From: an uncultured bacterium
GTDB taxonomy: Bacteria > SAR324 > NAC60-12
Assembly: GCA_965662235.1 (NCBI GenBank)
Contig: CBFIGY010000011.1
Span: forward strand, 21,328-85,327
Reading direction: 5' to 3'
DNA length: 64,000 nucleotides
The notes under the pieces were generated by a model. That model saw nothing but the letters and a program-made list of their open reading frames with translations, was not told the DNA's origin and did no database searches. Below, piece after piece: positions 19,514 through 55,681 of this stretch. The first letter of the stretch is position 1, and each line of letters opens with the position of its first letter. A program made the translations under genes and the position numbers.

Positions 19514-22500
19514 ATGCCGGCACTGCCTCCTTACCAATGGCCCTTGCACCGAACCCGCATCCGGCAATTCCGTGAACGGGTCGAGGCTCGGATCCTAGCA
19601 GACTGGGTGCCCCTGCAGGCACGTTTTGCCCGGACGGTTGACCCGGTGCCGTTTGCGGAGCGGCAGGCCTTGGCCTACCAGCCCATTGAAGAAGGAGCGG
19701 TCTGGGGCACGACCTGGGACAGCGCCTGGTTTCACCTGACGGGAACCATCCCGGAGGCATGGCGTCACGAGAGAGTGGTGGCCGTGTTGGATTTCAATGG
19801 TGAGGGGTTGGTGTTCTCAGAAACCGGAGACCCGCTGCAGGGGCTGACGAACGGCAGCGTGTTTGGTGACCTGACCCGCAACACCTTCCGGATTCCCTCC
19901 TCGAATGGCGCCCGCCCGTCGGTGGACCTGTGGGTCGAGGCGGCGGCCAATGGCCTTTCGGGAGTTGCACAGCAGCGCAACCCACCCGGAACATTGAACC
20001 GAGAGGGCCTTTATGAAGGTCGCGTGAACCGCATCCGGCTGGCTCGTTTCCCGGAGGAACTCTATCACCTTTGGCTGGATCTGGAGGTGCTGGAAGGCGT
20101 CTTGGACACGGTTCCGGAAGACTCCATGCGGTTTGCCCGTCTCCTCCAGGGGCTGGTGGCGGTGCAGGCTGTGTATGCCGACCAACCGGAGAACGCATCT
20201 CAGTGCCGGGCCTTTTTGGCGCCGCTGCTGCAGATGCCTGCCCATGCAACCACCCTGACCCTCCAAACCGTTGGGCACGCCCACATTGACACCGGATGGC
20301 TCTGGCCCGTCCGGGAAACGATCCGCAAGTGTGCCCGGACCTTTGCCAACCAGTTGGACCTTCTGGAACGCTATCCGGACTACGTCTTTGGGGCATCGCA
20401 GCCCCAGCACTATGCCTTTGTCAAGCAGCACTACCCAACGCTGTATGCTCGGGTGCAGGAGGCGGTCGCGTCCGGGCGCTGGGAGCTTCAGGGCGGCATG
20501 TGGGTGGAGCCCGACTGCAACCTGGTGAGCGGCGAGTCTCTGGTACGGCAGATTCTTCATGGCAAGAACTTCTTCTGGCAGGAGTTTGGAGTGGAGGTCA
20601 AGACCTGCTGGATTCCGGACGTTTTCGGGTACTCCGCGGCACTGCCTCAGATTCTGCGCAAGTCCGGGATTTCGAGCTTCCTGACACAGAAGATCAGCTG
20701 GAACCAGTTCAACCGCTTCCCGCACCACACCTTCCGGTGGCAGGGGTTGGATGGCTCCGAAGTGCTCACCCACTTTCCTCCTGAAGACACCTACAACAGC
20801 CAACTGACAGCGGCTGGACTCAAGAAGGCGGAGCGGCAGTTTGCAGAGAAGGGGTTTCTGGACACAGCAATGAACCTCTTTGGCGTCGGAGACGGCGGAG
20901 GCGGTCCGACAGCAGAGATGATTGAACGCGGCAGGCGGCACCAGAATCTGGAAGGCTTGCCCCGGGTCCGCTTCGGGCGTGCCGATGCGTTTTTCGAAGC
21001 CCTGGCGTCTCAGGCTGAAGAGCTTCCGGTGTGGGTGGGCGAGCTTTACCTCGAGTACCACCGTGGCACCTACACCTCGCAGGCCCGGACCAAGTGGAAC
21101 AACCGCCGCTTGGAGGAAGCGCTCCGGGCAACAGAGTACCTTTACAGCCGCTTTCTTCCCCTAGACGCCTATCCTGCAGACACGCTTGAGGCGACCTGGA
21201 AGACCCTGCTCCTCAATCAGTTTCACGACATCCTTCCCGGGTCCAGCATCGGGTGGGTGTATGAGGTGACGGAACGTGAGCATGCGCAGGCACTGGCCAC
21301 CTGTGCCCACCTCCAAGACGCTGCGGCTGCGGTGGTGTTTCCAGAGCATCCGGACCGTTTGGTGCTGCTCAACACCCTGACGGTTCCCGTCACGTCCTCC
21401 CTGCTCCTCCCTTCCGGATGGGCGGGGGCTCAGCTTTTGGGCGGCCAGCCGCTGCCGACTCAGGCAGACCCGGACGGTTCGGTCTGGGCTCAGATCACGG
21501 TTCCAAGCCAAAAGGTTCTGACGCTTGAGCGCGGTCCCGAGGCGCCGACGTCGGTTCCGGAACCGCAGCGGGTGCTGGAAAATGACTGGATCCGCTACGA
21601 ACTGACGGAGCACGGTGAGCTGTGCCGGGCGTATGACAAGGAACTCCAGCGCGAGTGGTTGCCCCCGGGAACCCTGGGCAACGTCCTCTCGCTTTATGAA
21701 GACCAGCCTCACGCCTATGATGCCTGGGAAATCGACATCGGTTACGAAGCCTTGCTTCTGGAGACCGCTCAGGGGCAGTCTTGGACCTCGATGGGAAGCG
21801 GGCCGGTGCAGCAAGGACTGCGCTTCGTGCTCCGCGTGGGGCTGTCGACCCTGACCCAAACCCTGACGCTGGCAACGCACTCCCGGGAGCTGCGGGTGAC
21901 CACCGAAGTGGACTGGCAGGAAACGCACCGGATGCTCCGTGTCGCCTTCCCGGTTGCGGTGCAGAGTGACGCTGCGACCTTTGCCGTGCAGTTTGGCACC
22001 GTCAAGCGTCCGACTCATCAGAACACCAGTTGGGACGTCGCGCGCTTCGAAAGCGTTGCCCACCAGTTTGTGGACCTCTCGGATGCGTCCGGAGGCGTGG
22101 CACTGCTCAACGATGGCAAGTACGGACACAAGGTTCAGGGCGCCTGCCTCGACCTCAACCTCCTCCGCTCTCCCACCGATCCGGATCCGCACGCAGATCA
22201 AGGCCTCCACCGCTTCACCTACAGCTTCTTTCCTCATCCGGGAGACGTCGTCACCGGAAACGTTTGGGCGCAGGCGCAGGCTCTCAATCAGCCGCCGCTG
22301 TGCTTTCCCGGACGCACGGCCATGGAAACAGAGGCGCCGCAGGTTCGGGTGGTGGGCGAAGGTCTCAGCCTAGAAGCCTTCAAGAAAGCCGAGCAGGAAG
22401 CCTGCTGGGTGATCCGGATTGTGGAGGTGCTCGGGCGGAGCTGCACGGGGGGCCTCGAAGTGCCTCCGGAAGTTGAGATTGAGGAGACGGACCTGATGGA

Positions 22501-29179: not shown

Positions 29180-29649
29180 GTGGATGCGTCTGCAGGTGCC
29201 GGGGGTGCTGCCAAGGGCACGGTGACGCCTCTGTGCCGCGTGTGCCCTCTGTAACGGTTGGTCTTCCGCACCCTACTGGAGGTGCGTCGCGCTCGCAAGA
29301 AAAAAGCAGAACGCGGGCTCTCCCCTGAAGGGTGATGTGGTGCCGAGGAAGCGCATCTGCTCCTTTTTGATCAACGTCTTGGACGGACCTGGGAAGAAAG
29401 AATCTGGCAAGAAGAACACACCTCCTCCGGTCGTCCCATCCACGTCTGGGGGATGTAGCAAAAGAGCCGGTGGGGAGCGGCTCTGTCTTGGAGAAGCCGG
29501 TCATGTGTTGAGGAAGTCGGAGCATTTGAGGAAAATTCCACGGGGGCGGTTCCCAGACTTGACTGCCAGAGTCAGACTGGTTGAATGGATGGGACGCCGG
29601 GCTCTTGATTCCGAGCCTCCTTCTGCTCAACCCGTGCCGTCGCCCTACC

Positions 29650-30309
29650 ATGGATGCTCGCCTACGTGACCTTCCGGACTGGAACTACCTGCTGCTGGAG
29701 TTTGATCAGATCTACCGTCTGGGCTCCTCCGGAGGCAGCACCATCATCCGCAGCCACCTGAGACGAGTCCGGGAAACCCTGAGGCGGGTGGTGAAGACCA
29801 ATCCCTTTTACACGCCTCGGCAGCCGGAGGTCAAACCCGTCAACGCGCACTGGGGACGGGCGCTGGATCTGGCAACCTCCGGACCCTTGGCGCACCTGGC
29901 GCGGGTGCTGCCTCGGGTGGAGTCGGAGCTGGTGTGGCAGTGGGGGTATGAGCGCATTCCCAAGGAGCTCGCCAAGCGATACGCCTACTGTGAACTGCTG
30001 GGGCCGCAGGGGCCCATTCAGTCGGAGGAGTTGATTTTGGGGCTCGTGCTTTTTGCCCCCGGGACCACGTATCCGCAGCACCGTCATGAGGAAATCGAGG
30101 AAAGCTACATCTCGCTGGCAGGGGCGTGGTCGGAGAATGACGGCGCGGTTTATGCGCCGGGCTCGCTCATCCTCAATCGCTCCAACCAGCACCACCGCAT
30201 CACCATTGGCACCCGCGATCCCTGCCTGCTGGCCTACGCTTGGATTGGCCCCCCCTCGCGCCTGACGAGCCAGGTCTTCCGCTTCTCACGCCTGCAGCGG
30301 ATGCCCTGA
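29650..30309 (+). CDS. cupin domain protein (DMSP-lyase DddL-like cupin family)
   Basis: Classic cupin motif 1 GTTYPQHRHEEIEESYISLAG and motif 2 around HHRITIG. Start at the ATG at 29650; the upstream 23 codons of the ORF-track version look like non-coding read-through. Confidence 0.6.
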   Translation: MDARLRDLPDWNYLLLEFDQIYRLGSSGGSTIIRSHLRRVRETLRRVVKTNPFYTPRQPEVKPVNAHWGRALDLATSGPLAHLARVLPRVESELVWQWGYERIPKELAKRYAYCELLGPQGPIQSEELILGLVLFAPGTTYPQHRHEEIEESYISLAGAWSENDGAVYAPGSLILNRSNQHHRITIGTRDPCLLAYAWIGPPSRLTSQVFRFSRLQRMP

Positions 30310-34881: not shown

Positions 34882-36327
34882 TCAGCGTCGCTCGCTGCGG
34901 AGGATGAAACGCTGCAGGGGCGGGGGAAGCATGAGGTCGAAGCGGAGGCTGATCGAGGTCAGGAACCAGCCAAAGAGCTGCTTGAGGGCAGCAAGGTGTT
35001 CGTCTTCCAGTGCGTAGTAGAGGTGCCGTCCGATGTAGATGGCGGGGCCCTTGCGAGAGAGCGTCTTGCCCTGAATGAGGAAGCGGATGAACGGGGCCTC
35101 GACTAGGCTGTCGGAGTCGGTGTCGAAGGCCCCAACGCCCAGCTGACAGGCAACCATCCAGCCTGCTGGAAGTTCCGTTTCTCCATCTAGGCGCAGGAGT
35201 TTGGGAATCCGGAACCCGAGCATGCGGCTGTATTCCCGCTGCAGGCGTCCGCCACGTTCAAAGGGGTGAGCGCTCCAGCGTTCCGAATCCCGGAACTGGC
35301 GGTCGGCTTCACTGAGCCAGTACTGCACGACGTTCAGCAGAGCTGCTTCGAAGGAAGCCTGATACCCCAGCAAGGACCGGGTGCCATCGAGCGCCGTTTC
35401 CACATAGTCCTCAATGCGGGCCTGGAAGTGCGGGGCCGAGCAGTCATCAACAGGATTGAGGGTCCGGATCACCTGCTTGAGGGGGGAAGCGTTGCGGGCG
35501 CAGTACTCCCGGAAGGCCTGCTCCAGATTTCCTGAGAGGGGCTCCGGACGCTCTAGGTCTTCGAGGGGTGGCTCTTCGGTGTCATCAATGTCCGACTGAG
35601 CAAGGCGGAGGACGCCTTCCTTGACAAGGCGCTCCACGGTCCGGAAGTCAAGCTTGCGGAGGAGGCTGTCCCAGCGCTTCACCGGACGTCCGAGCAGCTG
35701 TCCAAGACGCATCAGGAGCCAGGCGGTGCCTTCGTCGTTTTGAGCAAGGTCGTCCAGCTTCTTGAGGAAGAAGCGGTTCTTGGCAGTGAGGTAGATGTGG
35801 TAATGCGGGGAGAAGAGGCCCTGGAGGCGTTCTGCCAGAAAGGCCCGGCGGCGGTCTTCCGGAAAGCTGGGGATGGAGGCAAAGTGCTGCTCGAGCTTTT
35901 GCCGCTGCCTCAGCGTCTCAGAGGGCGCGTCCAGCAGCGTCTGCAGGCTGCGTTCGAGGGTGTTGCGGTAGGCGCTCAGGGCGTCAGCTTCCCGCTGCGT
36001 CCGGGCGAAGTCGAAGAGGCGGTGGATGACCGCAAGGGACTGGATGCTCTTCTGGACACTGGAACGCAGTGCGGCTTCGCCCTGTTCCGGGTCGTAGTTG
36101 GCAATGAGGCGCCGAACGGTTTCCGGGTGATAGAACTGAATGGCGTGGACGAAAGCGCGGTGCGGGTCGCTTCCGGGGTAGGGCATTTCCACCGGGTGCT
36201 CCTCCTGGAACGCTTCCCATGCCACGTCAAAGGCGTCACGGAAGGTGGACATGAGGAGCCCGGTGTCACCATTCAGGGCGCTCCGCAGGTGGGTGATGCG
36301 CTGGTTCCAAGAAGCCACACCGCTCAT
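34882..36327 (-). CDS. hypothetical protein of 481 aa, the downstream partner of the MoxR ATPase
   Basis: The 6-nt gap after the MoxR gene on the same strand implies co-transcription. The composition is normal for a protein (Phe/Tyr/Trp/Lys/Ile present), unlike the Gly/Val-rich antisense ORF 35740..36783. No TM segment, no signal peptide, and no recognisable vWA MIDAS (DxSxS) motif. Confidence 0.6.
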   Translation of the reverse strand: MSGVASWNQRITHLRSALNGDTGLLMSTFRDAFDVAWEAFQEEHPVEMPYPGSDPHRAFVHAIQFYHPETVRRLIANYDPEQGEAALRSSVQKSIQSLAVIHRLFDFARTQREADALSAYRNTLERSLQTLLDAPSETLRQRQKLEQHFASIPSFPEDRRRAFLAERLQGLFSPHYHIYLTAKNRFFLKKLDDLAQNDEGTAWLLMRLGQLLGRPVKRWDSLLRKLDFRTVERLVKEGVLRLAQSDIDDTEEPPLEDLERPEPLSGNLEQAFREYCARNASPLKQVIRTLNPVDDCSAPHFQARIEDYVETALDGTRSLLGYQASFEAALLNVVQYWLSEADRQFRDSERWSAHPFERGGRLQREYSRMLGFRIPKLLRLDGETELPAGWMVACQLGVGAFDTDSDSLVEAPFIRFLIQGKTLSRKGPAIYIGRHLYYALEDEHLAALKQLFGWFLTSISLRFDLMLPPPLQRFILRSERR

Positions 36328-36333
36328 GACGCC

Positions 36334-37344
<1,011 letters not shown>

Positions 37345-44217: not shown

Positions 44218-44505
44218 ATGAGGAAACAAGTGATGGCATTTATTCTGGGAGGCAGCCTTTTGGCCTGCAGTGCGCCTCCTCAGGCCCTGACGGTGTCAAC
44301 GGACCTGCCGGAGATTGTCGTGGAGGTGGCCAAGAAGAAGGAGCTGCCGAAGCGAGAAGACCTCCCTTCTGGCATTCAGGAAACCTTTTCCCGCTCCTGC
44401 TCAGCCTACTGGGGGCAAGACTGGATCATGGTGCAGTACTGTGTGAAGAACCGCTCTGACGAGTACCTCCACCGCTACGGAGACACCCTTCCCAACCGGA
44501 CCTAG
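44218..44505 (+). CDS. small lipoprotein (hypothetical)
   Basis: MRKQVMAFILGGSLLACS contains the lipobox LLAC. 95 aa. Coding status uncertain. Confidence 0.45.
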   Translation: MRKQVMAFILGGSLLACSAPPQALTVSTDLPEIVVEVAKKKELPKREDLPSGIQETFSRSCSAYWGQDWIMVQYCVKNRSDEYLHRYGDTLPNRT

Positions 44506-45401
44506 TCTGACGTTGCTTCGGAGTGAGGGGTGAGGGTGTAGTGCTCCCAGAGGGAGGAACTGTGGTTAGAATCGGTGATGGCGTACTCACCCCGGAGGCG
44601 TCGAATGACAGCGCAGCGTTTTTCATAAGACGGAGGCGCGGCAAAGGTGGTGCTGAACTCATCGAGCACACAGTCCACTGGCTGAGCCTCTAGGGCCAGG
44701 CTGATGCGGGCCGGACCCGCGCAGTACTGCCCCCCAAAGTGCACCGTCTCTCCGCCCCACCCAATCACCTGACCCGGTAAGCACGGCAACGGTTGCACGC
44801 CGTGCAGGCAGGCCCGCAAAAGTCCCGGATTCAGACGTTCCTCTTCGCCCATGGTCTCCCAGAAGGCCTGAGAGGCTTTACGGGAGAGGACAAACATGCA
44901 TCCATTCTCCGGAGTCGCCACCGTGAGGGGAAGCCACAGGGTTTGCAGAAGCCGGTTTTGGGGATCGCGGTAGTGGTACCCCATCCCGTCGGCGTGCGGG
45001 GGCCAGCCATGACCGACGGTGCGATCGACATAGTGGAGGATGGGGTTGGCGCGGATGAAAGCAGGTTCGCCCAGAAGCTGCTGAGCCAACGTCCGGAGGG
45101 CCGGGTGGGTGATCAGCTTCCAAAGCTCCGGATAGATCAACGCGTAGGAAGACGGGTGCCCGGCGGAAACGACTTCCTGGACCAGCGAGGCACACTGATC
45201 AATCAGGCCCCGGTCCAGTGCCAGTCGCGTCCGGAACCACCCCAGCTCCTTCTGCATGGCTCGGGCGTGCTGAAGCCGCGCCCGCTGCAGCATGATCCGA
45301 GGGCGTGTGCGTGGGGTGGGGCCTGTGGCCTCTAGGTGCTGACGAAGGCGGTTCCAGTACTCCGGATGCTCCAACGGCTCGGTGCCGGTCGCAGGGGGCA
45401 T
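44502..45401 (-). CDS. PhyH-like Fe(II)/2OG dioxygenase family protein (tentative)
   Basis: The C-terminal two-thirds has PhyH-like elements (...GWPPHADG..., WLPLTVATPENGCMFVLS, ...ETVHF). The first 150 residues of the 450-aa ORF overlap the MATE gene antisense and look non-coding, so I chose MPPATGTE at 45401 as the start. Confidence 0.45.
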   Translation of the reverse strand: MPPATGTEPLEHPEYWNRLRQHLEATGPTPRTRPRIMLQRARLQHARAMQKELGWFRTRLALDRGLIDQCASLVQEVVSAGHPSSYALIYPELWKLITHPALRTLAQQLLGEPAFIRANPILHYVDRTVGHGWPPHADGMGYHYRDPQNRLLQTLWLPLTVATPENGCMFVLSRKASQAFWETMGEEERLNPGLLRACLHGVQPLPCLPGQVIGWGGETVHFGGQYCAGPARISLALEAQPVDCVLDEFSTTFAAPPSYEKRCAVIRRLRGEYAITDSNHSSSLWEHYTLTPHSEATSD

Positions 45402-45586
45402 GGCTGGGTCCTCCAGAAAGGGAAGCCGCGATCCGTTCGCTGCTTCTGGTAAGGGCCGGACTTCACGAAAACATGAGGGAGCCGCCCCAGATGCGGGGGT
45501 CACTGCACCGCAACCGGACCCAAAACACAAGGTCTTGGGCCTCAAAGGGGAAAAATTGGGTGGGGAGGGCTTCCCCAAAAAACGGC

Positions 45587-46906
45587 CTAATGAGAAGGGG
45601 CGGAGGCGGTTTCTGGGAAAATGGCACGCGAGGACAGCATTCCCAAGGAGGCGCCCCGGAGGACCATGAACACAGTCAGGGCGAGCCACAGTCCGTGGTT
45701 GCTCAGCAGCGGTTCCAGGAGAGCATAGAGGACAAAGAACGCGGCAGCACAACCGAGCATGGCGTTGCGCATGGTCCGGGTGGCCGTGGCGCCGATGTAA
45801 ATGCCGTCCCAGATGAAGGCGAAGAGGTTCAGCAGGGCTCCAACCACCAGCCACGGCAGGTAGACCTGCGCGAGCGCCACCACCTCGTCATGCGAAGTGA
45901 ACAGCTTCAGCAGCAGGGGTCCGGCAAATTCATACAGCAGCGCAAACGTGCCTCCGATTCCAGCCGCCCAGATCAGGAGCAAGCGGATGCACTGCCGGAG
46001 CCCGGAGGCGTCTCGCTGCCCAATGAAGCGTCCGACCAAACCCTGGCCCGCATTGGCAAAGCCATCGACGGCAAAGGAGATCAGCATCCACAGCTGCATC
46101 AGCAGGGAATTGGCTGCAAGCACAGCCTCTCCTTCCCAGGCTGAAGCAACGGTGAAGAAGGAGAACACCGAAATCAGCGCTAGGGTCCGGATGAGGATGT
46201 CGCGGTTGACCCGGAAGAAGTGCAGGAGGACCTCTGGATCAAAGAGGCGGCGGAGGTTTTGCTCCAGCGGAAGGTGTGGAAACCGCCACCGCAGCAAGAA
46301 GAAGGCAAAGAGAACACCGCAGTACTGGGCGACCACGGTCCCCCACGCGACGCCATCCGAAAAGAGGCCCAGGCCATAGACAAAGGTCAGGTTGCCGAGG
46401 ATGTTGAGGAGGTTGATGGCCAGGGTGAGGATCATCGGTGTCCGGGCGTCTTGCATGCCCAGGAACCAGCCACTGAGGACCATCAGCGTCAGGGTGGCTG
46501 GTGCTGCCCAGATGCGGATGTGAAAGTACGAAACGGCGGCGCCCAGCACCTCGGGCGTGGACTCCACCCACGGAAAAGCGAGGGCCGCAATTCCAGACTG
46601 GAGCAGGATCATCAGCAACCCGCCGACCAGCGCGACCAGAACGCCCCGCTGGAGCACCCGGCTGGTTTCCTGCTGATCACGCCGTCCCCAGGCCTGAGCG
46701 GTCATTCCGGTGGTGCCCATGGCCAGGAAGCCCAGGCCCCAGTAGAGGAAATTAAAGATCATGGTCCCGACCGCAAGGGCGCCCAGGTAGTGGCTCTCAG
46801 GCATGTGCCCCACCACAGCGGTGTCCACCATGCCCAGTAACGGGATGGAAACATTCGCGGCAATATTCGGGAGCGCGAGTTTCAGAATCTCACGGTTGAT
46901 GCCCAT
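45587..46906 (-). CDS. MATE family efflux transporter
   Basis: 439 aa, 12 TM segments. The N-terminus ILKLALPNIAANVSIPLLGMVDTAVVGH is the MATE (NorM/DinF) signature. Confidence 0.9.
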   Translation of the reverse strand: MGINREILKLALPNIAANVSIPLLGMVDTAVVGHMPESHYLGALAVGTMIFNFLYWGLGFLAMGTTGMTAQAWGRRDQQETSRVLQRGVLVALVGGLLMILLQSGIAALAFPWVESTPEVLGAAVSYFHIRIWAAPATLTLMVLSGWFLGMQDARTPMILTLAINLLNILGNLTFVYGLGLFSDGVAWGTVVAQYCGVLFAFFLLRWRFPHLPLEQNLRRLFDPEVLLHFFRVNRDILIRTLALISVFSFFTVASAWEGEAVLAANSLLMQLWMLISFAVDGFANAGQGLVGRFIGQRDASGLRQCIRLLLIWAAGIGGTFALLYEFAGPLLLKLFTSHDEVVALAQVYLPWLVVGALLNLFAFIWDGIYIGATATRTMRNAMLGCAAAFFVLYALLEPLLSNHGLWLALTVFMVLRGASLGMLSSRAIFPETASAPSH

Positions 46907-47827: not shown

Positions 47828-48796
47828 ATGGATGCCCCCTTGGTCCGGATCACGGAGGTTTCGGAAGGAACCCCTTCCCCTCCGAATCGGTCGCCTGGAC
47901 ACGCGCTGGAGCTGATCTTCAAAGAATATGCGCCCAACACGCGGCGGGCCTACTCTCGGGCCTTCCGGGACTTTCTGAACTGGGCCCAGGTTTCGGACCT
48001 GTCCGGGCTGGCGGAGGTGGACCCCTTCAAGCTGCTGGAGTTCAAAGGCCATCTGAAGGAGTCGGGACGCAAGCCCTCCAGCATCAACCAGACCCTGAGT
48101 GCGCTCCGGAAGATTGGGAAGCTGCTGGCCGAGTTTGGGTACCTGACGCACAACCCGTTTGACACCTCGGTGCTGCGCAGTGAGAAGGTGTCTCCGACGA
48201 GCAGCAAGGGGGCGCTGCAGGTGGCTCATGTGCACGCGATGCTGCAGGCCAATGCCACCTGTGCCTACGACGCACGTCGGGCGCCGTTGCTGCGGACCCG
48301 GAACGCGCTGATCCTCAAGTTCCTCTACTTCACTGCCGCGCGTCGGAGTGAAGCCGCTGGACTGCGCTGGGAGGACCTGGATCAGGACGGCGTGTACTTT
48401 GTGGCGCGGTTACGGCATACCAAAAGTGGCGTGGAGCAGAAGCTCAAACTGCGGACGGAGCTGTATCAGGGGCTGATGAGCTGGAAGGCGATGCTGGAGG
48501 AACACGAGCTGAGCACCCCTTGGGTGTTTCCCTCGCTGGGCTTCCGGACACAGGCCCAGCAGATGGACGGCAAGGGCATCAACGACGTGGTGGTTCGGCT
48601 CGGACGTCAGGTGGGGCTCGACATTTCGGCACACTACCTGCGGCACACCGCCATTACCCTAGCACTGGAGCTGGGGGAGCCGCTGCAGAAGGTTCAGGCC
48701 TATGCCCGGCATGCCTCGGCGGACACCACGATCCGCTACTTCCATGACCGGCAGCTTCTGGAGCAGAACCCGACCGACCGGCTTCCACCGGTCTGA
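47828..48796 (+). CDS. tyrosine-type site-specific recombinase/integrase
   Basis: N-terminal SAM-like core-binding domain (RRAYSRAFRDFLNWA). Catalytic domain with R (AARRSEAAGLRWEDL), HxLRHTAIT and the terminal TTIRYFHD tyrosine. No tRNA or att-like repeat lies adjacent. Confidence 0.8.
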   Translation: MDAPLVRITEVSEGTPSPPNRSPGHALELIFKEYAPNTRRAYSRAFRDFLNWAQVSDLSGLAEVDPFKLLEFKGHLKESGRKPSSINQTLSALRKIGKLLAEFGYLTHNPFDTSVLRSEKVSPTSSKGALQVAHVHAMLQANATCAYDARRAPLLRTRNALILKFLYFTAARRSEAAGLRWEDLDQDGVYFVARLRHTKSGVEQKLKLRTELYQGLMSWKAMLEEHELSTPWVFPSLGFRTQAQQMDGKGINDVVVRLGRQVGLDISAHYLRHTAITLALELGEPLQKVQAYARHASADTTIRYFHDRQLLEQNPTDRLPPV

Positions 48797-48815: not shown

Positions 48816-49577
48816 TTACTCGCTCTTGCGGGCAATCCGTGAGACCCAGATGCTGATCTCGTAGAGGATCAGGAGCGGGCCTGCCATCAGCAGCTGGGTA
48901 AAGATGTCCGGGGGCGTCAGGATGGCAGCGGCAATGAAGATGATCACCAGTGCGTACTTGCGGTACTCCCGGAGGAAGTGATCGTTGAGCAGCCCCAGCC
49001 GAGTGAGGATGAAGGAAATCGTCGGGAGCTCAAACACGAGTCCGAATGCAAAGAGCAGGTGCACCGTCAAGGACAGGTAGGCTCCCATGCTCAGCGTCGG
49101 CAGTGTGACCTCGTTGATGAACCCGAGGAAGAAGTCGTAGCCGAAGGGCAGCACGACAAAGTACCCGAACAGCCCGCCACCGACAAAGAGGGGGTAGGAC
49201 AGCAGAATGAAGGGCCACACCGCCTTGCGCTCCTTGGCGTAAAGGGCCGGGCGGATGAAGAGCCAGATCTGTCCCAGCACAAACGGGAAGGTCAGGAACA
49301 GGGCCGCATAGAGTCCAATCTTCAGGTACGTGAAGAAGGGCTCCGTCAGTTCCAGGAAGTGCAACGGAATGTTGCGGGCTTCCAGCGGACGCCGGAAGAG
49401 GGTCAGGATGGGCTGGTTGAGGTTCATCTCGACATAGACGGCGGCGACAAACACAATCAGGATGGCAATGACCGATTGAACCAGCCGGGTTCTCAGCTCC
49501 GTGAGGTGGCTGGTGAGCGGCATGGGGACGTCATCCGGATTATGATCCGGGCTGGAACTGGGAGATGGGTGACTCAT
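48816..49577 (-). CDS. tatC: twin-arginine translocase subunit TatC
   Basis: Six TM segments and a canonical TatC N-terminus (MPLTSHLTELRTRLVQSVIAILIV). The true start may be the internal Met at 49523. Confidence 0.9.
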   Translation of the reverse strand: MSHPSPSSSPDHNPDDVPMPLTSHLTELRTRLVQSVIAILIVFVAAVYVEMNLNQPILTLFRRPLEARNIPLHFLELTEPFFTYLKIGLYAALFLTFPFVLGQIWLFIRPALYAKERKAVWPFILLSYPLFVGGGLFGYFVVLPFGYDFFLGFINEVTLPTLSMGAYLSLTVHLLFAFGLVFELPTISFILTRLGLLNDHFLREYRKYALVIIFIAAAILTPPDIFTQLLMAGPLLILYEISIWVSRIARKSE

Positions 49578-49624
49578 GGTTTTGGAACGGAGGCTAATAT
49601 GAAAAACAAAGCGAATCTTCTAAC

Positions 49625-52549
49625 ATGCTTTCCATGAAACTTCACGACAAACGTCACGGGGCCGGGGCCCTCTTTCTGCTGCTACTGCTGCTCAGCCTGT
49701 TCCCCAGCCTCCTTGGGGCTCAGGAGTCGGTCCCCTCGCGGGAAGTCTACCTGCTGTCTCAGACCTTCAAGGTGGCGAAGCCCCCGACGCTGGAGGCCCA
49801 GTTTTCCCTGAACGGACAAAACCTGGTGACGCTTTCAGGAAACCACCGCCTGGAGTTCTGGGTGCCGCAGAGCGCCAAGCGCCTGAAGGTGCTTCCGACC
49901 GGAGATCACCGGGCAACCCTGTTTGTGCAGCACCCCACGGAGCCGTTGCTGCTGACTGGTGGCGTGGACGATACGTTGCGGATCTGGAACCTAGAACGGG
50001 CCATGGAAACAGGCATCCTCCGGGGACACCTCTCGGCCATCACGGGCATGGTCCTGGATCCCACTGCGACAACAGCCGTTTCAGGGAGTGAAGACGGGAC
50101 CCTCATCTACTGGGATCTCACGGAGCGGAAGCTCATCAAGAAGATTGAGCAGGCCCACCGGGGCGCCATCCACGCCCTGGAGTTCCACCCGGGTGGAGAG
50201 ATGCTCGCGTCGGGCGGAGCTGATGGGATGATTCACCTCTGGAAGCTCCCGGACCTGACCCTGATCAAGACCCTGGAGGGCCACCTGGACGAAGTCACGC
50301 AGGTCCGCTTCACGCCCCTTGGGGAGAAGCTGATTTCGAGTTCAGCCGACCGGACCCTCAAGTTCTGGGACTGGAACACCGGGACCATCGAAAAGTCGAT
50401 TGAGCACCACCGCAAAGCCGTCACCGGTTTCGATCTGCACCCGGACCTGGGGCGATTGGTGTCTGCCAGTGCGGATGGCGGTGTCGCGATTTGGACCTTT
50501 CCGGAAGGCGAGCACGTCTTTGACCTGAAGTCGGTCGCGGGGCCGGTTTCGCAGATCCACTTTGATGCCAGTGGCAAGCGCCTCATTGCCGCTCTTTCTG
50601 AAGGACAGGTGCAGACGTGGGAGCTGGGAACCTCTTCCTTCTTGGCTTCCTTGACGGGGCACGAGCGTCCCGTGGACGCCCTCGCCTTCTCCCGGAATGG
50701 CAAGTACCTCGCCACGGCGTCTTCGGACAAAACCATTCGCTTCTGGGAGATGGAAAGCAACAAGATGGTGCGGCAGTACGTCACCGAGAACCATCGGGTG
50801 CAGTCCATGAGCTTCTCGCCAGACAGCAAGTACCTGTACACCGGCGGCGCAGACTCGACCATCCGGATCTGGAATGCTCAAGATGGGGCACAGGAGGCAC
50901 GGTTGGCCGCTCACAAGGGAAAGGTCAACGCCCTAGCGTTTCACCCGAATGGGAAGGTGCTGCTGACCGGTGGCTCGGACCACCAGTGGATGCTTTGGGA
51001 CCTCGAAACCAATGAAAACTACCGCGTCCAGAAGTCGCACCGAGACCAAGTGACCGCGGTGGATTTCTCTCCGGATGGTTCTCTGTTTGTCACGGCGAGC
51101 AACGACCGCACGGCGCAGATCTGGTCCTTTCCCAAAGGAGAGCCGCTGGGCGTCCTCCGTGGACACTCCCGGGGGCTCACGGATGTGGCATTTAGTCCTA
51201 CCGATCCCTTCATTGCCACCGCGTCACAGGACGGCACCCTGCGGCTCTGGGACATCACCGACCCGGAGGAACCGACCCTGCGGCTCATTCTGGAGGGGCA
51301 CAGTTACATCATCTCCCGGTTGTTTTTCTCCAAAAACGGGAAGGCCCTGGTTTCCATCTCCCGGGACAAAACCGTTCGGCTCTGGAGCGCGGTCAATGGA
51401 CAGATGATCCGCATCCTCAACGGAGAGAGCACCGCATTGACCAACGGTGCCCTCAGTCCGGACGGCTCCTTGATTGCGGTGACCAACCTGGCCAACACCG
51501 TGAGCCTGCTGGCGTACCCAGAGAACATCCCGGAACTCAAGGCACTTGAGGCGGCTCCGGTGGCCAGCGCCGAGGCAGGCTCGGTACCGGCGGCAGAGGC
51601 GGCTCCGGTTGCGCTGGAACCCATTTCCCTGAGTGACCCCGTCCGGAACCTTTCGGACCTGACGGTTGCGAATGTGCAGATGACTCCGGAGGAGATGCAG
51701 GTGTATGCGGTACCCGTGGTGCCGCCTCCTTCCACACGGGGAGAGGAGCTGCAGCAGGAGCTGGACCGGCTCCTGAAGCAGCAGGTGTGTCAGGAGCTGA
51801 GCCCGCTGGAACAGGTGGCGTTGGAGCTGTTGACGTACTATCCGGATGAAATGGCGGCCTACCATGCGCTCCTCAAGGCGGCGCTCCTTCGCGGTGACCT
51901 GCCCCTGGCTCAACTGCTGGTGTACGTCGGCAACGAAGCACGGTTCCGGGTGAACCGGTTTGACTATGCCACCGAGCTGACGGTCCGGAACACCTTTGAC
52001 ACGTGGAAGAGCACCGTCTTTGATCAAACTTCCCCTCGGCAGGGCAAGCCCATGGAGTTTCGGCTCCGGAACTGCCAGGGGCAGGAGCAGGTGCTGACGC
52101 TTCCGGAAGACCTGCAGACCCTGCGGGTGCCTCAGGAGTTCATCCAGAAGCTGAACTCCATTCCGCGCATCATCGACTTCCGGGACTTCCGGAACATGCC
52201 GCTTGAGGAGTTCCTCAACCGCTTCCACCGGGAAGTGGAGCGGGTGCTGCAGACCGATCAGCCTCTGCCACTGGCACGCCTGCCTCGGCCCCTTTCTCAA
52301 CCGGTGGAACCCCAGGAAACGGGGTTACTGGACCTGAACCTGGAGCGGACGACGTCTTGGAAGAATGGCGGTAATGTTCCCTTCCGGCTCCGTCGGGCCA
52401 CCCAGCCGTGGCAGTCGTACGTCACCGACCGGGACAACCGGTTGCTGCTGCAGCTGCCAATTGGCAACTACTCCCTGCAGGTCGGAACCACCATTAGCAG
52501 TGCCTTCCGTATAGAACCCGGCATCACCACTACTCCGATCCTCAAGTAA
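49625..52549 (+). CDS. secreted WD40-repeat protein (about 14 blades, two beta-propellers) with a C-terminal ~350-aa domain of unknown function
   Basis: Signal peptide MKLHDKRHGAGALFLLLLLLSLFPSLLGAQE. Fourteen roughly 40-aa repeats with GH...WD/WN dipeptides (e.g. RGHLSAITGMVLDP...SEDGTLIYWDL). Residues ~620-974 have no repeats and no recognisable motif. Confidence 0.85.
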   Translation: MLSMKLHDKRHGAGALFLLLLLLSLFPSLLGAQESVPSREVYLLSQTFKVAKPPTLEAQFSLNGQNLVTLSGNHRLEFWVPQSAKRLKVLPTGDHRATLFVQHPTEPLLLTGGVDDTLRIWNLERAMETGILRGHLSAITGMVLDPTATTAVSGSEDGTLIYWDLTERKLIKKIEQAHRGAIHALEFHPGGEMLASGGADGMIHLWKLPDLTLIKTLEGHLDEVTQVRFTPLGEKLISSSADRTLKFWDWNTGTIEKSIEHHRKAVTGFDLHPDLGRLVSASADGGVAIWTFPEGEHVFDLKSVAGPVSQIHFDASGKRLIAALSEGQVQTWELGTSSFLASLTGHERPVDALAFSRNGKYLATASSDKTIRFWEMESNKMVRQYVTENHRVQSMSFSPDSKYLYTGGADSTIRIWNAQDGAQEARLAAHKGKVNALAFHPNGKVLLTGGSDHQWMLWDLETNENYRVQKSHRDQVTAVDFSPDGSLFVTASNDRTAQIWSFPKGEPLGVLRGHSRGLTDVAFSPTDPFIATASQDGTLRLWDITDPEEPTLRLILEGHSYIISRLFFSKNGKALVSISRDKTVRLWSAVNGQMIRILNGESTALTNGALSPDGSLIAVTNLANTVSLLAYPENIPELKALEAAPVASAEAGSVPAAEAAPVALEPISLSDPVRNLSDLTVANVQMTPEEMQVYAVPVVPPPSTRGEELQQELDRLLKQQVCQELSPLEQVALELLTYYPDEMAAYHALLKAALLRGDLPLAQLLVYVGNEARFRVNRFDYATELTVRNTFDTWKSTVFDQTSPRQGKPMEFRLRNCQGQEQVLTLPEDLQTLRVPQEFIQKLNSIPRIIDFRDFRNMPLEEFLNRFHREVERVLQTDQPLPLARLPRPLSQPVEPQETGLLDLNLERTTSWKNGGNVPFRLRRATQPWQSYVTDRDNRLLLQLPIGNYSLQVGTTISSAFRIEPGITTTPILK

Positions 52550-52574
52550 CTCCCCCTCTGCCAATCCACAAAAG

Positions 52575-52612
52575 CGCTCCCTCTTCTGGGAGTGTTTGGT
52601 TTTTAATTTTTT
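52575..52612 (+). terminator. Rho-independent terminator of the WD40 gene
   Basis: GCTCCC-TCTTCT-GGGAGT hairpin followed by a GTTTGGTTTTTAATTTTTT U-tract, 26 nt after the stop. Confidence 0.6.
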
Positions 52613-52931: not shown

Positions 52932-53435
52932 TTATTCCTCGTCAGGGTCGAGAATGGAGTTGATGGCGGTGACAACGCGCATGGTGTCGAGGTTGTTGAG
53001 GGGAGCGTACACGAGGATGGCTTGCTTCTCCCGGTCAATGTTCACCGAGTCCTTCCCCATTTTCTCTTGCTCCGGTTGGGAGTTGATGAAGTAGCAGTAG
53101 GAGTTGTTGGGAAGTTCGGTGTCTGTCACCTTGACAAAGTCGTACTGACTGCCTTCGGGGATGACGTTGAGGCTATAGACGTGGTCGAAGCCTTCTCGGG
53201 TGAACTGCTTGAGGAACTTAACCACCTCCGGCTTTTGCTCCTGCTTGATGCGGTGCGAAAGCTGTGTGATCAGTTGTCCTTCTTTGTCACCGGTGTGGCG
53301 ACGGTCGGTGTTGGTGAAGATGCCCATTCCCTGGCGGAAGGGGTGAACGGCAGCCCAGAAGAGCTTCTCCATCAACTCTTCCCAGCGGTCGTGTGGGCAG
53401 AGGTGAACCTGCTTCAAGCGAGAGTCGTCAGACAT
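52932..53435 (-). CDS. hypothetical acidic protein of 167 aa
   Basis: High GC3 and protein-like composition on the minus strand. The overlapping plus-strand ORF 52905..53504 is Gly/Val/Leu-rich and typical of antisense. Acidic tail ILDPDEE. Second gene of a two-gene operon, 41 nt after the upstream gene. Confidence 0.55.
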   Translation of the reverse strand: MSDDSRLKQVHLCPHDRWEELMEKLFWAAVHPFRQGMGIFTNTDRRHTGDKEGQLITQLSHRIKQEQKPEVVKFLKQFTREGFDHVYSLNVIPEGSQYDFVKVTDTELPNNSYCYFINSQPEQEKMGKDSVNIDREKQAILVYAPLNNLDTMRVVTAINSILDPDEE

Positions 53436-53476
53436 GCGAATTTCCTGGTGCGGTGGAGAAAGAAGGAAGGCGGTGC

Positions 53477-54616
53477 TCAGCCTCCGGACGCTTTTACCAA
53501 CTGATTGATGGCACGGGCAACATGAGGGTCATCGGAACGTCCCCGCAGCGCCTCAACGGATTTCTTGGAGAGGGTGCTCAGGCTTTCCGGAATCGCCTCT
53601 CCGCTGCGCTTGACCTGCACCAGCGCTTTGGTGCACAGCGACGCCAATTGCAGCAGGCACCCGGTCTCAAAGCCGGGCTTGGGAGAGACGCCAATGTTGT
53701 CCGCGTTCTGTTGAGAGAACTGCAGGGCCTCCTGGATCAACTTGGAGGTCTGCTCGGTCAGTTCCGGTTTCTTGAGAAACCGGTTCTGTAGCTGAATGAC
53801 CTCAATGTCAACGCGACGGTACTCGGCTTCATGGAAGTTAGCGAGTAGGGACTTCTTGTCCGCGCTCTTGATGGCATCGAGGAGCTGCTGCTGCTGCTCA
53901 CGGAGCAACGGAAGGATGGCAAAGAGCTGCAGGAGGTGGTCGATCTGCTGCTGCAGGTCCGTGCTGGGTTTCCCGCCAAAGGCGATTTCCTTGTACTTGA
54001 GAACCACAGAGCCGTTGTTGCTGTTGACCTTGAGGACGTGGATCAGTTCCGCAAGGAAGGAGCGGCCATTCCGGACCTGCTGAAGCTGGTCCTTGACGCG
54101 TTCGTCGCGGTCGGCTTCCACCACCAAGCGCATCTCATCGTCCTTCAGGGCCTCATAGAGCGCCGAGAGCAGGCGGTTTTGCATGAGGGCCGCAAGGTAG
54201 AGAGACGGCTGCCGAGCCTGGGTGGGGTCGAGGTTATTGACGTGGGCCAGCAGGGTGGCATCCATCAGCGCCGCGACGTTCCCCTTAATCGAGCTTCCGG
54301 AGAACATCAGCAGCATCTCGGTCCGGGTGTCCAGTGCCCAAGGATCGTTGATCAGGTGCCGGGCAAGGTCCTGAGCATCGGCTCCGAGTGCCTCTGCGAG
54401 TCGCAGGCCTGCGGCATCCGGACCGGAGGCTTCCGGGAGGGGCTTTTGTGAGAGACTTTGTCCCACACCCTTGAGGGCCGAGCTGACAATGGTCCGGCGC
54501 TTGGCAGAGTTGAACTGCGTCTTGGGCTGTTGAAACAGGCGTCCCATCACGGTGAGGATCCCAAACGGGTCCCCATAGATGGGCAACTCTCGTACGCGAA
54601 TATCCGTCAGTGACAT
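53477..54616 (-). CDS. hypothetical protein of 379 aa
   Basis: Normal amino-acid composition. Central Gln-rich predicted helical region (...LLREQQQQLLDAIKSADKK...). No TM segment, signal peptide or known catalytic motif. First gene of the two-gene operon. Confidence 0.6.
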   Translation of the reverse strand: MSLTDIRVRELPIYGDPFGILTVMGRLFQQPKTQFNSAKRRTIVSSALKGVGQSLSQKPLPEASGPDAAGLRLAEALGADAQDLARHLINDPWALDTRTEMLLMFSGSSIKGNVAALMDATLLAHVNNLDPTQARQPSLYLAALMQNRLLSALYEALKDDEMRLVVEADRDERVKDQLQQVRNGRSFLAELIHVLKVNSNNGSVVLKYKEIAFGGKPSTDLQQQIDHLLQLFAILPLLREQQQQLLDAIKSADKKSLLANFHEAEYRRVDIEVIQLQNRFLKKPELTEQTSKLIQEALQFSQQNADNIGVSPKPGFETGCLLQLASLCTKALVQVKRSGEAIPESLSTLSKKSVEALRGRSDDPHVARAINQLVKASGG

Positions 54617-54686: not shown

Positions 54687-55385
54687 TCAGAAAGCCGTGG
54701 CTTCGTCAACGAAAGAAGTGCTCAGTGAAATCAGGTGCCCGGTTTTGACATAAATCAGCGCCCCTTCCGCTTGCGTGTAGGGCGTGTGCTCGCTCAGGTG
54801 GGGAGAGCGGATCCAGGAGCCCTGAGGGTAGGCTCCCTGCTCATCGTAGAAAACGCCTTCTAGCACATAGATTTCCTCGCCTCCCCAGTGCTGGTGCCGG
54901 TGAAAACGGGTCTCTGGAGCCCAGCGAACCAGGGCCACGTGCTCCTGTTCGTGCTGATGCAACGGCAGTACCGTGACCCCAGGCACCAGCCCGGGGAACC
55001 ACTCCGCCTGAGTGGTGTCGGTCACACAGGGCGCCTGGTCGGTCTCGTCGAACTGATGGAGCTTGACGAAGATCAACGCCCCTTCCTCACCAATGAGAGG
55101 CGTGTGTGAGGTGCCAATCGGGTTCCGGACGTAGGTGCCAGCGGGATAGGCGCCGTGCTCATCGGCAAAGACCCCTTCTAGCACCAAAAACTCTTCCCCT
55201 CCGCCATGAGCATGAGGTGAGAACTGACTCTGAGGCGCATAGCGGACCAGAGAGGTCGCGCGCGCGACTTCTTCTCCCACGCGGTCGAGCATCATTCGGG
55301 TCACCCCTGGCATGGGAGAGGGGACCCACTGGTGGTCTTCCGGCCGGAGGACCACTCGTTCTTGGAAATTCGCATTCAGTCGCAT
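54687..55385 (-). CDS. ChrR-type double-cupin protein (Cupin_7 family; stand-alone, without the anti-sigma zinc domain)
   Basis: Two tandem copies of the ChrR-cupin pattern ...PGxxxxxHxHxGGEExxVLEGVFxDExGAYPxG(T/S)(Y/W)(V/I)R(N/S)PxxSxHTP. Start at MRLNANFQ (55385); the ORF-track version begins 27 codons earlier. Confidence 0.7.
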   Translation of the reverse strand: MRLNANFQERVVLRPEDHQWVPSPMPGVTRMMLDRVGEEVARATSLVRYAPQSQFSPHAHGGGEEFLVLEGVFADEHGAYPAGTYVRNPIGTSHTPLIGEEGALIFVKLHQFDETDQAPCVTDTTQAEWFPGLVPGVTVLPLHQHEQEHVALVRWAPETRFHRHQHWGGEEIYVLEGVFYDEQGAYPQGSWIRSPHLSEHTPYTQAEGALIYVKTGHLISLSTSFVDEATAF

Positions 55386-55681
55386 GGGCTCACTTGGGAC
55401 AAGGGCGCTGCCGGCAGCACCGTGCGTTCGTGCACCGTACGCCCTGACGTTACGGGAACGGATCAAAAAATTTCAGCTCTGCTCCAAGAGGCATCACAAC
55501 GGTCGGCTTCGAGAAGAAGAACGGCAGGGCTTCATTGTTTCAGGAAAAAAATGTGCCCCTCAAGGCAAAACGAAATCTAAGGGAAATCGAGGCTTCAGGG
55601 ACAAATTACGGAAGCCGTTTGGGGGACGAGACCGGACACGTTTGGGGAAAGGCTTCTGTCAGGAGTCCCCTTGAAACTCAG

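Follow-up and report, generated by a model that had tools for sequence, protein, structure and literature searches.

Why would a bacterium fit a protein made of two WD40 beta-propellers with an export signal, and to which cellular process does such a protein belong? The question is raised by a gene in a 64,000-nucleotide stretch of DNA (the window, by which we mean this whole stretch) from an uncultured bacterium of the GTDB lineage Bacteria; SAR324; NAC60-12, covering positions 21,328 to 85,327 of the forward strand of contig CBFIGY010000011.1 (GenBank assembly GCA_965662235.1). We found that this gene belongs to a real, well-defined and uncharacterised protein family with a nearly fixed architecture, and that in most of the lineages examined it stands head-to-head with tatC, the gene of the Tat (twin-arginine) translocase component. 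The two genes are:

49625 to 52549, + strand: WD40 protein gene, an uninterrupted open reading frame (ORF) of 974 codons.
48816 to 49577, - strand: tatC (Pfam TatC, E=2e-65), divergent from the WD40 gene and its only conserved neighbour.

The extent of the family was determined by an exhaustive profile search of 1.84 billion cluster representatives, which recovered 57 clusters, 29 of them at E<=1e-30. Related loci are cited below by L numbers, and proteins or their clusters by P numbers. Full-length members measure 905-1014 aa and always carry the same C-terminal module at their extreme C-terminus, while the shorter matches are fragments from frameshifted or truncated contigs. The module was seen in no other architecture, save one 663-aa form with fewer blades (P0046), in which a signal peptide and about one degenerate propeller accompany the C-terminal module of the family, and whose n-region, unlike that of the other members, holds an RR pair (KRGLRRVKRG). 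A fast word-index homologue search of the module returned only three relatives (37-38% identity) and missed the window's own protein. All members come from metagenomes or metagenome-assembled genomes (MAGs), many of the contigs being marine metagenomes, and the G+C content of the family loci ranges from 32 to 64%. The records are labelled 'Deltaproteobacteria bacterium', 'Proteobacteria bacterium' or 'bacterium', and the proteins are named only 'WD40 repeat protein' or 'hypothetical protein'; we infer a SAR324-like affiliation for the family.

Counting the window, 35 loci have an adjacent, divergent tatC; they fall into 7 of the 11 50%-identity clusters examined, and their intergenic gaps measure ~40-230 bp (47-56 bp in the window). 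The head-to-head arrangement occurs in a 79-85%-identical relative (L003), in the marine clade L001/L002, in L004, L005/L006, L051 and L053, and in every metagenome contig that reaches far enough upstream. The genes on both outer sides of the pair vary by lineage: a xer recombinase, HAD hydrolase, NAGidase, DUF2157 or trkH gene on the far side of tatC, and an orphan gene pair, VWA_CoxE, sua5 or scpB downstream of the WD40 gene. Across the paired lineages TatC is 46-77% identical and the WD40 protein 32-43%, and the pairing persists down to a TatC identity of 46-52%. A regular-expression scan with a crude pattern detected no tatA/tatB-like gene beside tatC in the window or at any locus. Our literature search yielded no paper linking TatC with a WD40 protein, and the head-to-head pairing was not described there. 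Overall, the genomic link between the family and tatC is moderately well supported.

Traces of wider synteny were also found, namely matE-tonB-xer in L030/L038, sua5 in L004, L051 and L005, and trkH in L051 and L008. The gene order is trkH-tatC-WD40-sua5 in L051 (758-6569) and tatC-WD40-sua5 in L004 (9220-13665), and the WD40 gene of two distant members, which have no tatC there, is closely preceded by Trk-type potassium transport genes (L008 3144-10892; L007 1841-5845). This residual trkH/sua5 synteny suggests an ancestral trkH-tatC-WD40-sua5 block. In the window, tatC is adjoined by a tyrosine recombinase gene (Phage_integrase plus SAM_1; 47828-48796, + strand), which occupies the same position in L030, L032, L038 and L039 (58-60% identity) and in L003 (88%). 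Because of this conserved position, the recombinase is probably a chromosomal XerC/D-type enzyme and not a marker of a mobile element.

The 974-aa ORF proposed by an earlier sequence-only reading of this DNA agrees with the ORF list and with identical protein records. Started from a second in-frame ATG (49634), the product has 971 aa, as called by public gene callers, and public protein collections hold both forms (971 aa, P0004; 974 aa, P0061). Residue numbers of the blades, linker, C-terminal module and cysteines refer to the 971-aa form. The protein is composed of the following parts:

49625 to 49720, + strand: Sec-type signal peptide of ~32 residues (MLSMKLHDKRHGAGALFLLLLLLSLFPSLLGA) without a twin-arginine motif, as read from the sequence.
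49742 to 50632, + strand: first 7-bladed WD40 propeller, blades 1-7, residues 37-333 (28 AlphaFold2 strands, confidence mostly >90; Pfam WD40/propeller matches).
50639 to 51514, + strand: second 7-bladed WD40 propeller, blades 8-14, residues 336-627 (28 AlphaFold2 strands).
51551 to 51730, + strand: disordered Ala/Pro/Val-rich linker, residues 640-699 (AlphaFold2 confidence ~30).
51734 to 52039, + strand: tetratricopeptide repeat (TPR)-like helical bundle in the predicted structure, residues 701-802, with the invariant Cys719 (codon 51788-51790).
52055 to 52255, + strand: alpha/beta connector, a beta-hairpin (808-822) plus helices to residue 874, with the invariant Cys814 (codon 52073-52075), from the models and the family alignment.
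52319 to 52513, + strand: C-terminal beta-sandwich of six model strands, residues 896-960, transthyretin/CnaB/CarboxypepD_reg-like, with the motif LPxGxYxLxV.

The confidence values are predicted local distance difference test scores (pLDDT). The WD40 model of Pfam (PF00400) matched the protein in 10 stretches over residues ~100-620 with E=6e-105 (339.7 bits against a cut-off of 27), and whole-propeller models scored up to E=6e-114 (PF25173). In a full-length AlphaFold2 model based on an alignment of 18 family members (mean pLDDT 85.9), 56 beta-strands lie between residues 37 and 627; these make up 14 four-stranded blades and hence two 7-bladed propellers. Both Pfam and the model thus bear out the two complete propellers that had been recognised from the letters. 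The Ala/Pro/Val-rich linker noticed at the same time is likewise evident, both from its composition (A12, P10 and V10 of 60 residues) and from its disorder in the model. Its length is kept across lineages and its composition varies; a short, semi-conserved motif, MTPEEMQVYAV, is kept in closer relatives.

The C-terminal module of ~270 residues (700-971) was well predicted in the full-length model, and equally when modelled alone (pLDDT 89.4; predicted template modelling score 0.86). In the model, a paired-helix bundle is followed by a beta-hairpin with further helices and then, via a short loop, by a six-stranded beta-sandwich. Pfam gave no match for the window module alone at E<=0.01 and was negative for the 18 family modules at E<=1, save scattered single chance matches; NCBIfam had no match to the module, a profile search of PDB sequences had none at E<=10, and the TPR family models matched none of the 18 modules at E<=1. 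Neither a common C-terminal domain nor a widespread family with unrelated neighbours was therefore found at sequence level, the family amounting to 57 clusters. At fold level, the first part has the helix-turn-helix repeats of a TPR-type bundle. Foldseek returned nothing for the module at E<=1e-3 and, for the sandwich, weak matches to CnaB2, the B. anthracis TIE protein and the transthyretin-like HIU hydrolase (E 7e-3 to 1e-1, probability 0.8-1.0), while the connector had no match among solved structures. The family profile also matched 9 SdrD_B/CarboxypepD_reg repeats of a giant surface protein (P0058) with E=1.3e-5. Since the weak structural matches and these profile matches agree, the module can be read as a composite of known folds. 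The sequence-only reading had described the last ~350 residues as lacking any known motif; this holds for linker and domain in that no catalogued sequence family covers them, but not for the fold, as the predicted structure appears to combine two common binding folds, TPR-like and transthyretin/CnaB-like, in a new way and not to be a new fold.

The N-terminus, MLSMKLHDKRHGAG-ALFLLLLLLSLFPSLLGA-QE, comprises a basic n-region, an 18-residue hydrophobic core, a small residue and an acidic mature start, and AlphaFold2 modelled the signal peptide as a lone helix (residues 9-27). By eye, this layout is common to all 18 full-length relatives and is followed by a conserved acidic, E-E-Y-like mature start; the position of the cleavage site is a prediction. 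Again judged by eye, two consecutive arginines ahead of the hydrophobic core occur in none of the 18 full-length members (the window protein has K-R-H). A Tat signal peptide was rejected for want of the twin-arginine motif, as was a lipoprotein for want of a lipobox. The mature window protein contains exactly two cysteines, both invariant in the family, and 15 of the 17 other mature proteins have an even number (2, 4 or 6), the exceptions being P0005 with an extra Cys338 and P0010 with Cys22 at the predicted cleavage site. These counts fit a disulfide-bonded protein in an oxidising compartment, in which a Cys719-Cys814 disulfide would probably staple the module. The suggested export is therefore backed by a signal-peptide-like N-terminus in the window protein and throughout the full-length family. 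It is also the export, not the number of repeats, that is unusual here: the earlier view that a secreted two-propeller protein is out of the ordinary stands for its export, but 14-repeat WD40 proteins are not unusual in prokaryotes (PMC5587647).

The region between and around the divergent starts contains two features:

49612 to 49650, no strand assigned: two-box DNA element of the tatC/WD40 divergent control region, from the alignment of loci.
49599 to 49637, + strand: possible 12-codon upstream ORF (MKNKANLLTCFP), read from the sequence.

On the + strand of the window the element reads CTAACA-N17-CACGACAAA, and its consensus is TTTTnTAMCAY-N-TKCACGAYAA, with exactly 17 nt between TAMCA and CACGA. 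On the - strand, which is the tatC strand, it reads TCGTG-N17-TGnTAnAAG and resembles an extended -10 box (TGnTAnAAA). In four lineages the second box lies at the 5' end of the WD40 gene in each locus, where it is usually the sole + strand match (elsewhere at ~2100-2150 in L001, ~5865-5910 in L030 and in L038, and ~2020-2066 in L040). In the window, L030 and L038 the reading frame of the gene runs through the element as M-(L/F)-S-x-x-L-H-D. This favours the ATG at 49625, with which the ATG of L030 and that of L038 align. In the marine clade this ATG is missing, so the conservation there is at the DNA level. The element is lacking in L004 and L005, where the tatC pairing is kept. To judge by its layout, it may be a tatC promoter or operator. 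As a + strand sigma-54, sigma-28 or standard sigma-70 promoter it was rejected by eye on account of unfit spacing or hexamers, and Rfam had no match in the window or the tatC/WD40 control region.

Both candidate starts of the WD40 gene (49625 and 49634) lack a Shine-Dalgarno sequence of their own. The possible upstream ORF is preceded by GGAGG, and its TGA overlaps the ATG at 49634 (ATGA); all of its 39 nt are identical in L003, unlike the flanking bases, and it was seen in no lineage besides the window and L003. At the other end of the gene lies one further feature:

52572 to 52607, + strand: terminator-like hairpin plus T-run, 23 nt past the stop, found by pattern match.

The clean terminator that had been credited to the gene is present as such a hairpin and T-run; however, the region contains 7 sites of this kind against 6.9 in shuffled sequence, so that the hairpin counts as a pattern match only.

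Taken together, these data suggest that the WD40 protein is, very probably, an exported non-enzymatic scaffold. We propose that it would be exported via the Sec pathway and fold in the periplasm, where its two rigid 7-bladed propellers would provide two large binding platforms, to which the flexible ~60-residue linker would tether the C-terminal module with a reach of ~20 nm, the module itself probably being stapled by the conserved cysteine pair. The WD40 gene and tatC would share a short divergent control region. Because of this shared region, and because tatC was kept while the other neighbours changed, its most likely role appears to lie in the export or assembly of envelope proteins, together with the Tat translocase or under common regulation with it; the protein might keep exported proteins bound or pass them on, or it might connect the translocon region with a further layer of the envelope. 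For this full statement, an exported non-enzymatic scaffold whose role is tied to co-regulation with tatC, we estimate a probability of about 0.45.

A functional link to Tat export is thus plausible, and several observations weigh against it. In the four outermost clusters (P0019, P0034, P0039 and P0047) the WD40 gene has no tatC beside it; the paired lineages are fairly close, most of them having TatC proteins that are 65-77% identical; and a larger part of a matE-tonB-xer-tatC block is common to some of them, so part of the pairing reflects shared ancestry. Nor is the protein an obvious Tat substrate itself, given signal peptides devoid of a twin-arginine motif, and the 5' element, as a possible tatC promoter, could hold both genes together without any shared function. 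The pairing may then be only regulatory or historical, with a tatC promoter or operator inside the 5' end of the WD40 gene making the two genes hard to separate, and with the protein serving an unrelated envelope role, such as a bridge between the inner membrane, peptidoglycan and outer membrane, or adhesion at the surface via its CnaB/transthyretin-like domain. We regard this as a real possibility that falls somewhat short of probable: the 17-nt-spaced element in four lineages (conserved as DNA in the marine clade and extended -10-like on the tatC strand), the short intergenic gap, a TatC (65-77%) far more conserved than the WD40 protein (32-43%), the residual trkH, sua5 and matE-tonB-xer synteny indicating common descent, and the retention of the protein without an adjacent tatC in the outer clusters all speak for it, but L004 and L005 are paired without the element, and both outer flanks have been replaced repeatedly with the pair intact. 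Beyond the scaffold tied to tatC lies a direct physical partnership with the Tat machinery, which would make the protein an unrecognised periplasmic Tat accessory in SAR324-like or deltaproteobacteria-like lineages, and which we consider unlikely. Here, the double propeller would dock at the periplasmic face of TatC, and the TPR/transthyretin-like module would receive emerging folded substrates or link the translocon with cell wall or outer membrane; to our knowledge, no periplasmic partner of TatC is known in any organism.

Three other readings concern the nature of the protein itself. It is improbable that the N-terminal hydrophobic segment is an uncleaved anchor, leaving the protein tethered to the inner membrane and facing the periplasm, or facing the cytoplasm. 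Although the cleavage site of the window protein (LLGA/QE, judged from sequence) departs from the textbook A-x-A, the positive charges before and acidic residues after the hydrophobic core place most of the protein outside, clear small-x-small sites occur in most relatives (AAA/KEE, SLA/QE, LSA/KEE), the cysteine counts fit an oxidising compartment, and a tethered periplasmic form would leave the scaffold reading unchanged. Still less probable is an enzyme or carbohydrate-binding module merely presented by the propellers. The module has no sequence family, so that an unrecognised activity is conceivable, and transthyretin- or CnaB-like sandwiches do occur in some hydrolases and adhesins; yet outside the TPR-like part and the small sandwich the module matches no enzyme fold of a solved structure, and the family modules, which are 18-41% identical to that of the window, share as invariant residues only L, C, C, F, W and Y, hydrophobic or cysteine, with one Asp and one Glu as the only nearly invariant polar positions and no conserved His/Ser/Asp/Glu constellation across the 18 members. 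The modelled module resembles binding and scaffold folds only, with no available sign of catalysis. Scarcely credible, finally, is the hint of the sequence-only reading that the protein is the beta-propeller component of a MoxR-vWA-beta-propeller NTP-dependent conflict or defence system, which are reportedly cytoplasmic, unlike a protein with a signal peptide and a cysteine pair. The nearest MoxR (AAA_3) gene (36334-37344, - strand) lies 12.3 kb upstream and passes the bpMoxR threshold of Pfam weakly (46 bits, against 201 bits for AAA_3), but gltX, rodA, fliM, a MatE transporter gene and others intervene, and none of the 54 related loci has a MoxR homologue. Where the vWA partner would be expected, MoxR is followed by a 481-aa ORF (the two spanning 34882-37344, - strand) without a Pfam, NCBIfam or PADLOC match, and the window has no vWA gene near the WD40 gene. 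Throughout the marine low-GC clade the WD40 gene is followed, 1-5 kb downstream, by a VWA_CoxE gene (72-96% identity; for example L001 5930-7186, L014 10511-11728, L040 6757-7959), but this gene is limited to that clade, its distance varies, and the flanks retrieved there contain no MoxR/CoxD. PADLOC reported only HEAT-ARM_XIII, through generic WD40 repeats over positions 127-280 of a 1972-position profile, and nothing on the neighbouring genes.

The gene was also said to sit beside an unknown two-gene unit, and a conserved neighbourhood with that unit was put forward for checking. This unit does exist:

52932 to 54616, - strand: 167-aa and 379-aa ORFs, convergent to the WD40 gene, without Pfam or NCBIfam matches.

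For the 379-aa protein, only 4 clusters of homologues turned up in 5.8 billion. A 57%-identical homologue occurs in MAG GCA_038150265.1, the MAG of the closest WD40 relative, but on another contig (L054), beside a TetR gene and with no 167-aa-sized gene called next to it. As the pair is absent from every related locus and this homologue lies on a different contig, the pair is not linked to the WD40 gene; tatC, the neighbour that is conserved, had been overlooked in the sequence-only reading. The local G+C content of 52932-54616 is 0.57, against ~0.61 for the window.

The window is otherwise an ordinary chromosomal stretch, with gltX, rodA, fliM, an AcrB/HlyD efflux pair, a cobalamin-synthesis gene, a D-Ala-D-Ala carboxypeptidase, two-component kinases and a ChrR-type anti-sigma factor. 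The HlyD/AcrB pair lies directly downstream of MoxR and the 481-aa ORF. Two cupins are encoded at 29581-30309 (+ strand) and 54687-55466 (- strand): one matches dimethylsulfoniopropionate (DMSP) lyase (E=2e-38), and the other is a ChrR-type anti-sigma cupin (E=4e-66), adjoining a PAS histidine kinase. The longest ORFs of a PhyH-like gene (44502-45854, - strand) and the MatE gene (45587-46906, - strand) overlap by 268 nt, so the true PhyH-like start is probably further downstream than the first GTG.

Exported true-WD40 proteins have received little study in bacteria. To these proteins the present family, which is restricted to uncultured and for the most part marine lineages, adds a fixed, uncatalogued C-terminal module that could become a new domain entry. 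A functional pairing with tatC would indicate that the Tat translocase, so far investigated almost exclusively as a machine of the membrane alone, has a partner in the periplasm. A purely regulatory pairing would instead be a clear example of two genes kept adjacent by an embedded promoter.

How does the protein compare with known systems? Periplasmic propeller-plus-TPR pairs serve envelope machines in the cases of TolB with CpoB/YbgF and BamB with BamD. In TolB/CpoB and BamB/BamD, the two parts are separate polypeptides, and the propellers are PD40 or PQQ-like. The window protein, in contrast, has true WD40 repeats, combines both parts in one chain and has tatC, not tol-pal or bam, as its partner gene. 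Of the 62 Pfam families matched at E<=0.01, the 25 listed are all of WD40 type and include neither PD40 nor a PQQ repeat family, and the NCBIfam model PQQ_ABC_repeats reached 28 bits against a cut-off of 287. Ycf48/HCF136, a 7-bladed propeller of the lumen or periplasm, is an exported non-enzymatic assembly scaffold, as proposed for the window protein; it has, however, a single propeller that is not of the WD40 sequence type and no C-terminal module, and its NCBIfam match was faint (E=0.002, 17 bits against a cut-off of 326). The MoxR-vWA-beta-propeller systems (the context of Pfam PF20030) share with the window a WD40-type propeller protein and a MoxR gene within the same 64 kb, and differ in that the window protein has no MoxR/vWA operon, no MoxR in related loci, and is exported. 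The best match among PDB sequences was 2YMU (E=3.8e-101), Npun_R6612 of Nostoc punctiforme, which likewise has canonical WD40 repeats in two 7-bladed propellers and is cited as the type example of prokaryotic 14-repeat WD40 proteins (PMC5587647). Its solved chain of 577 residues has no comparable linker or C-terminal module, and no association with tatC has been described for it. Neither a conflict system nor linked to the orphan pair, the family described here is a new form among the bacterial periplasmic propeller/TPR scaffolds.

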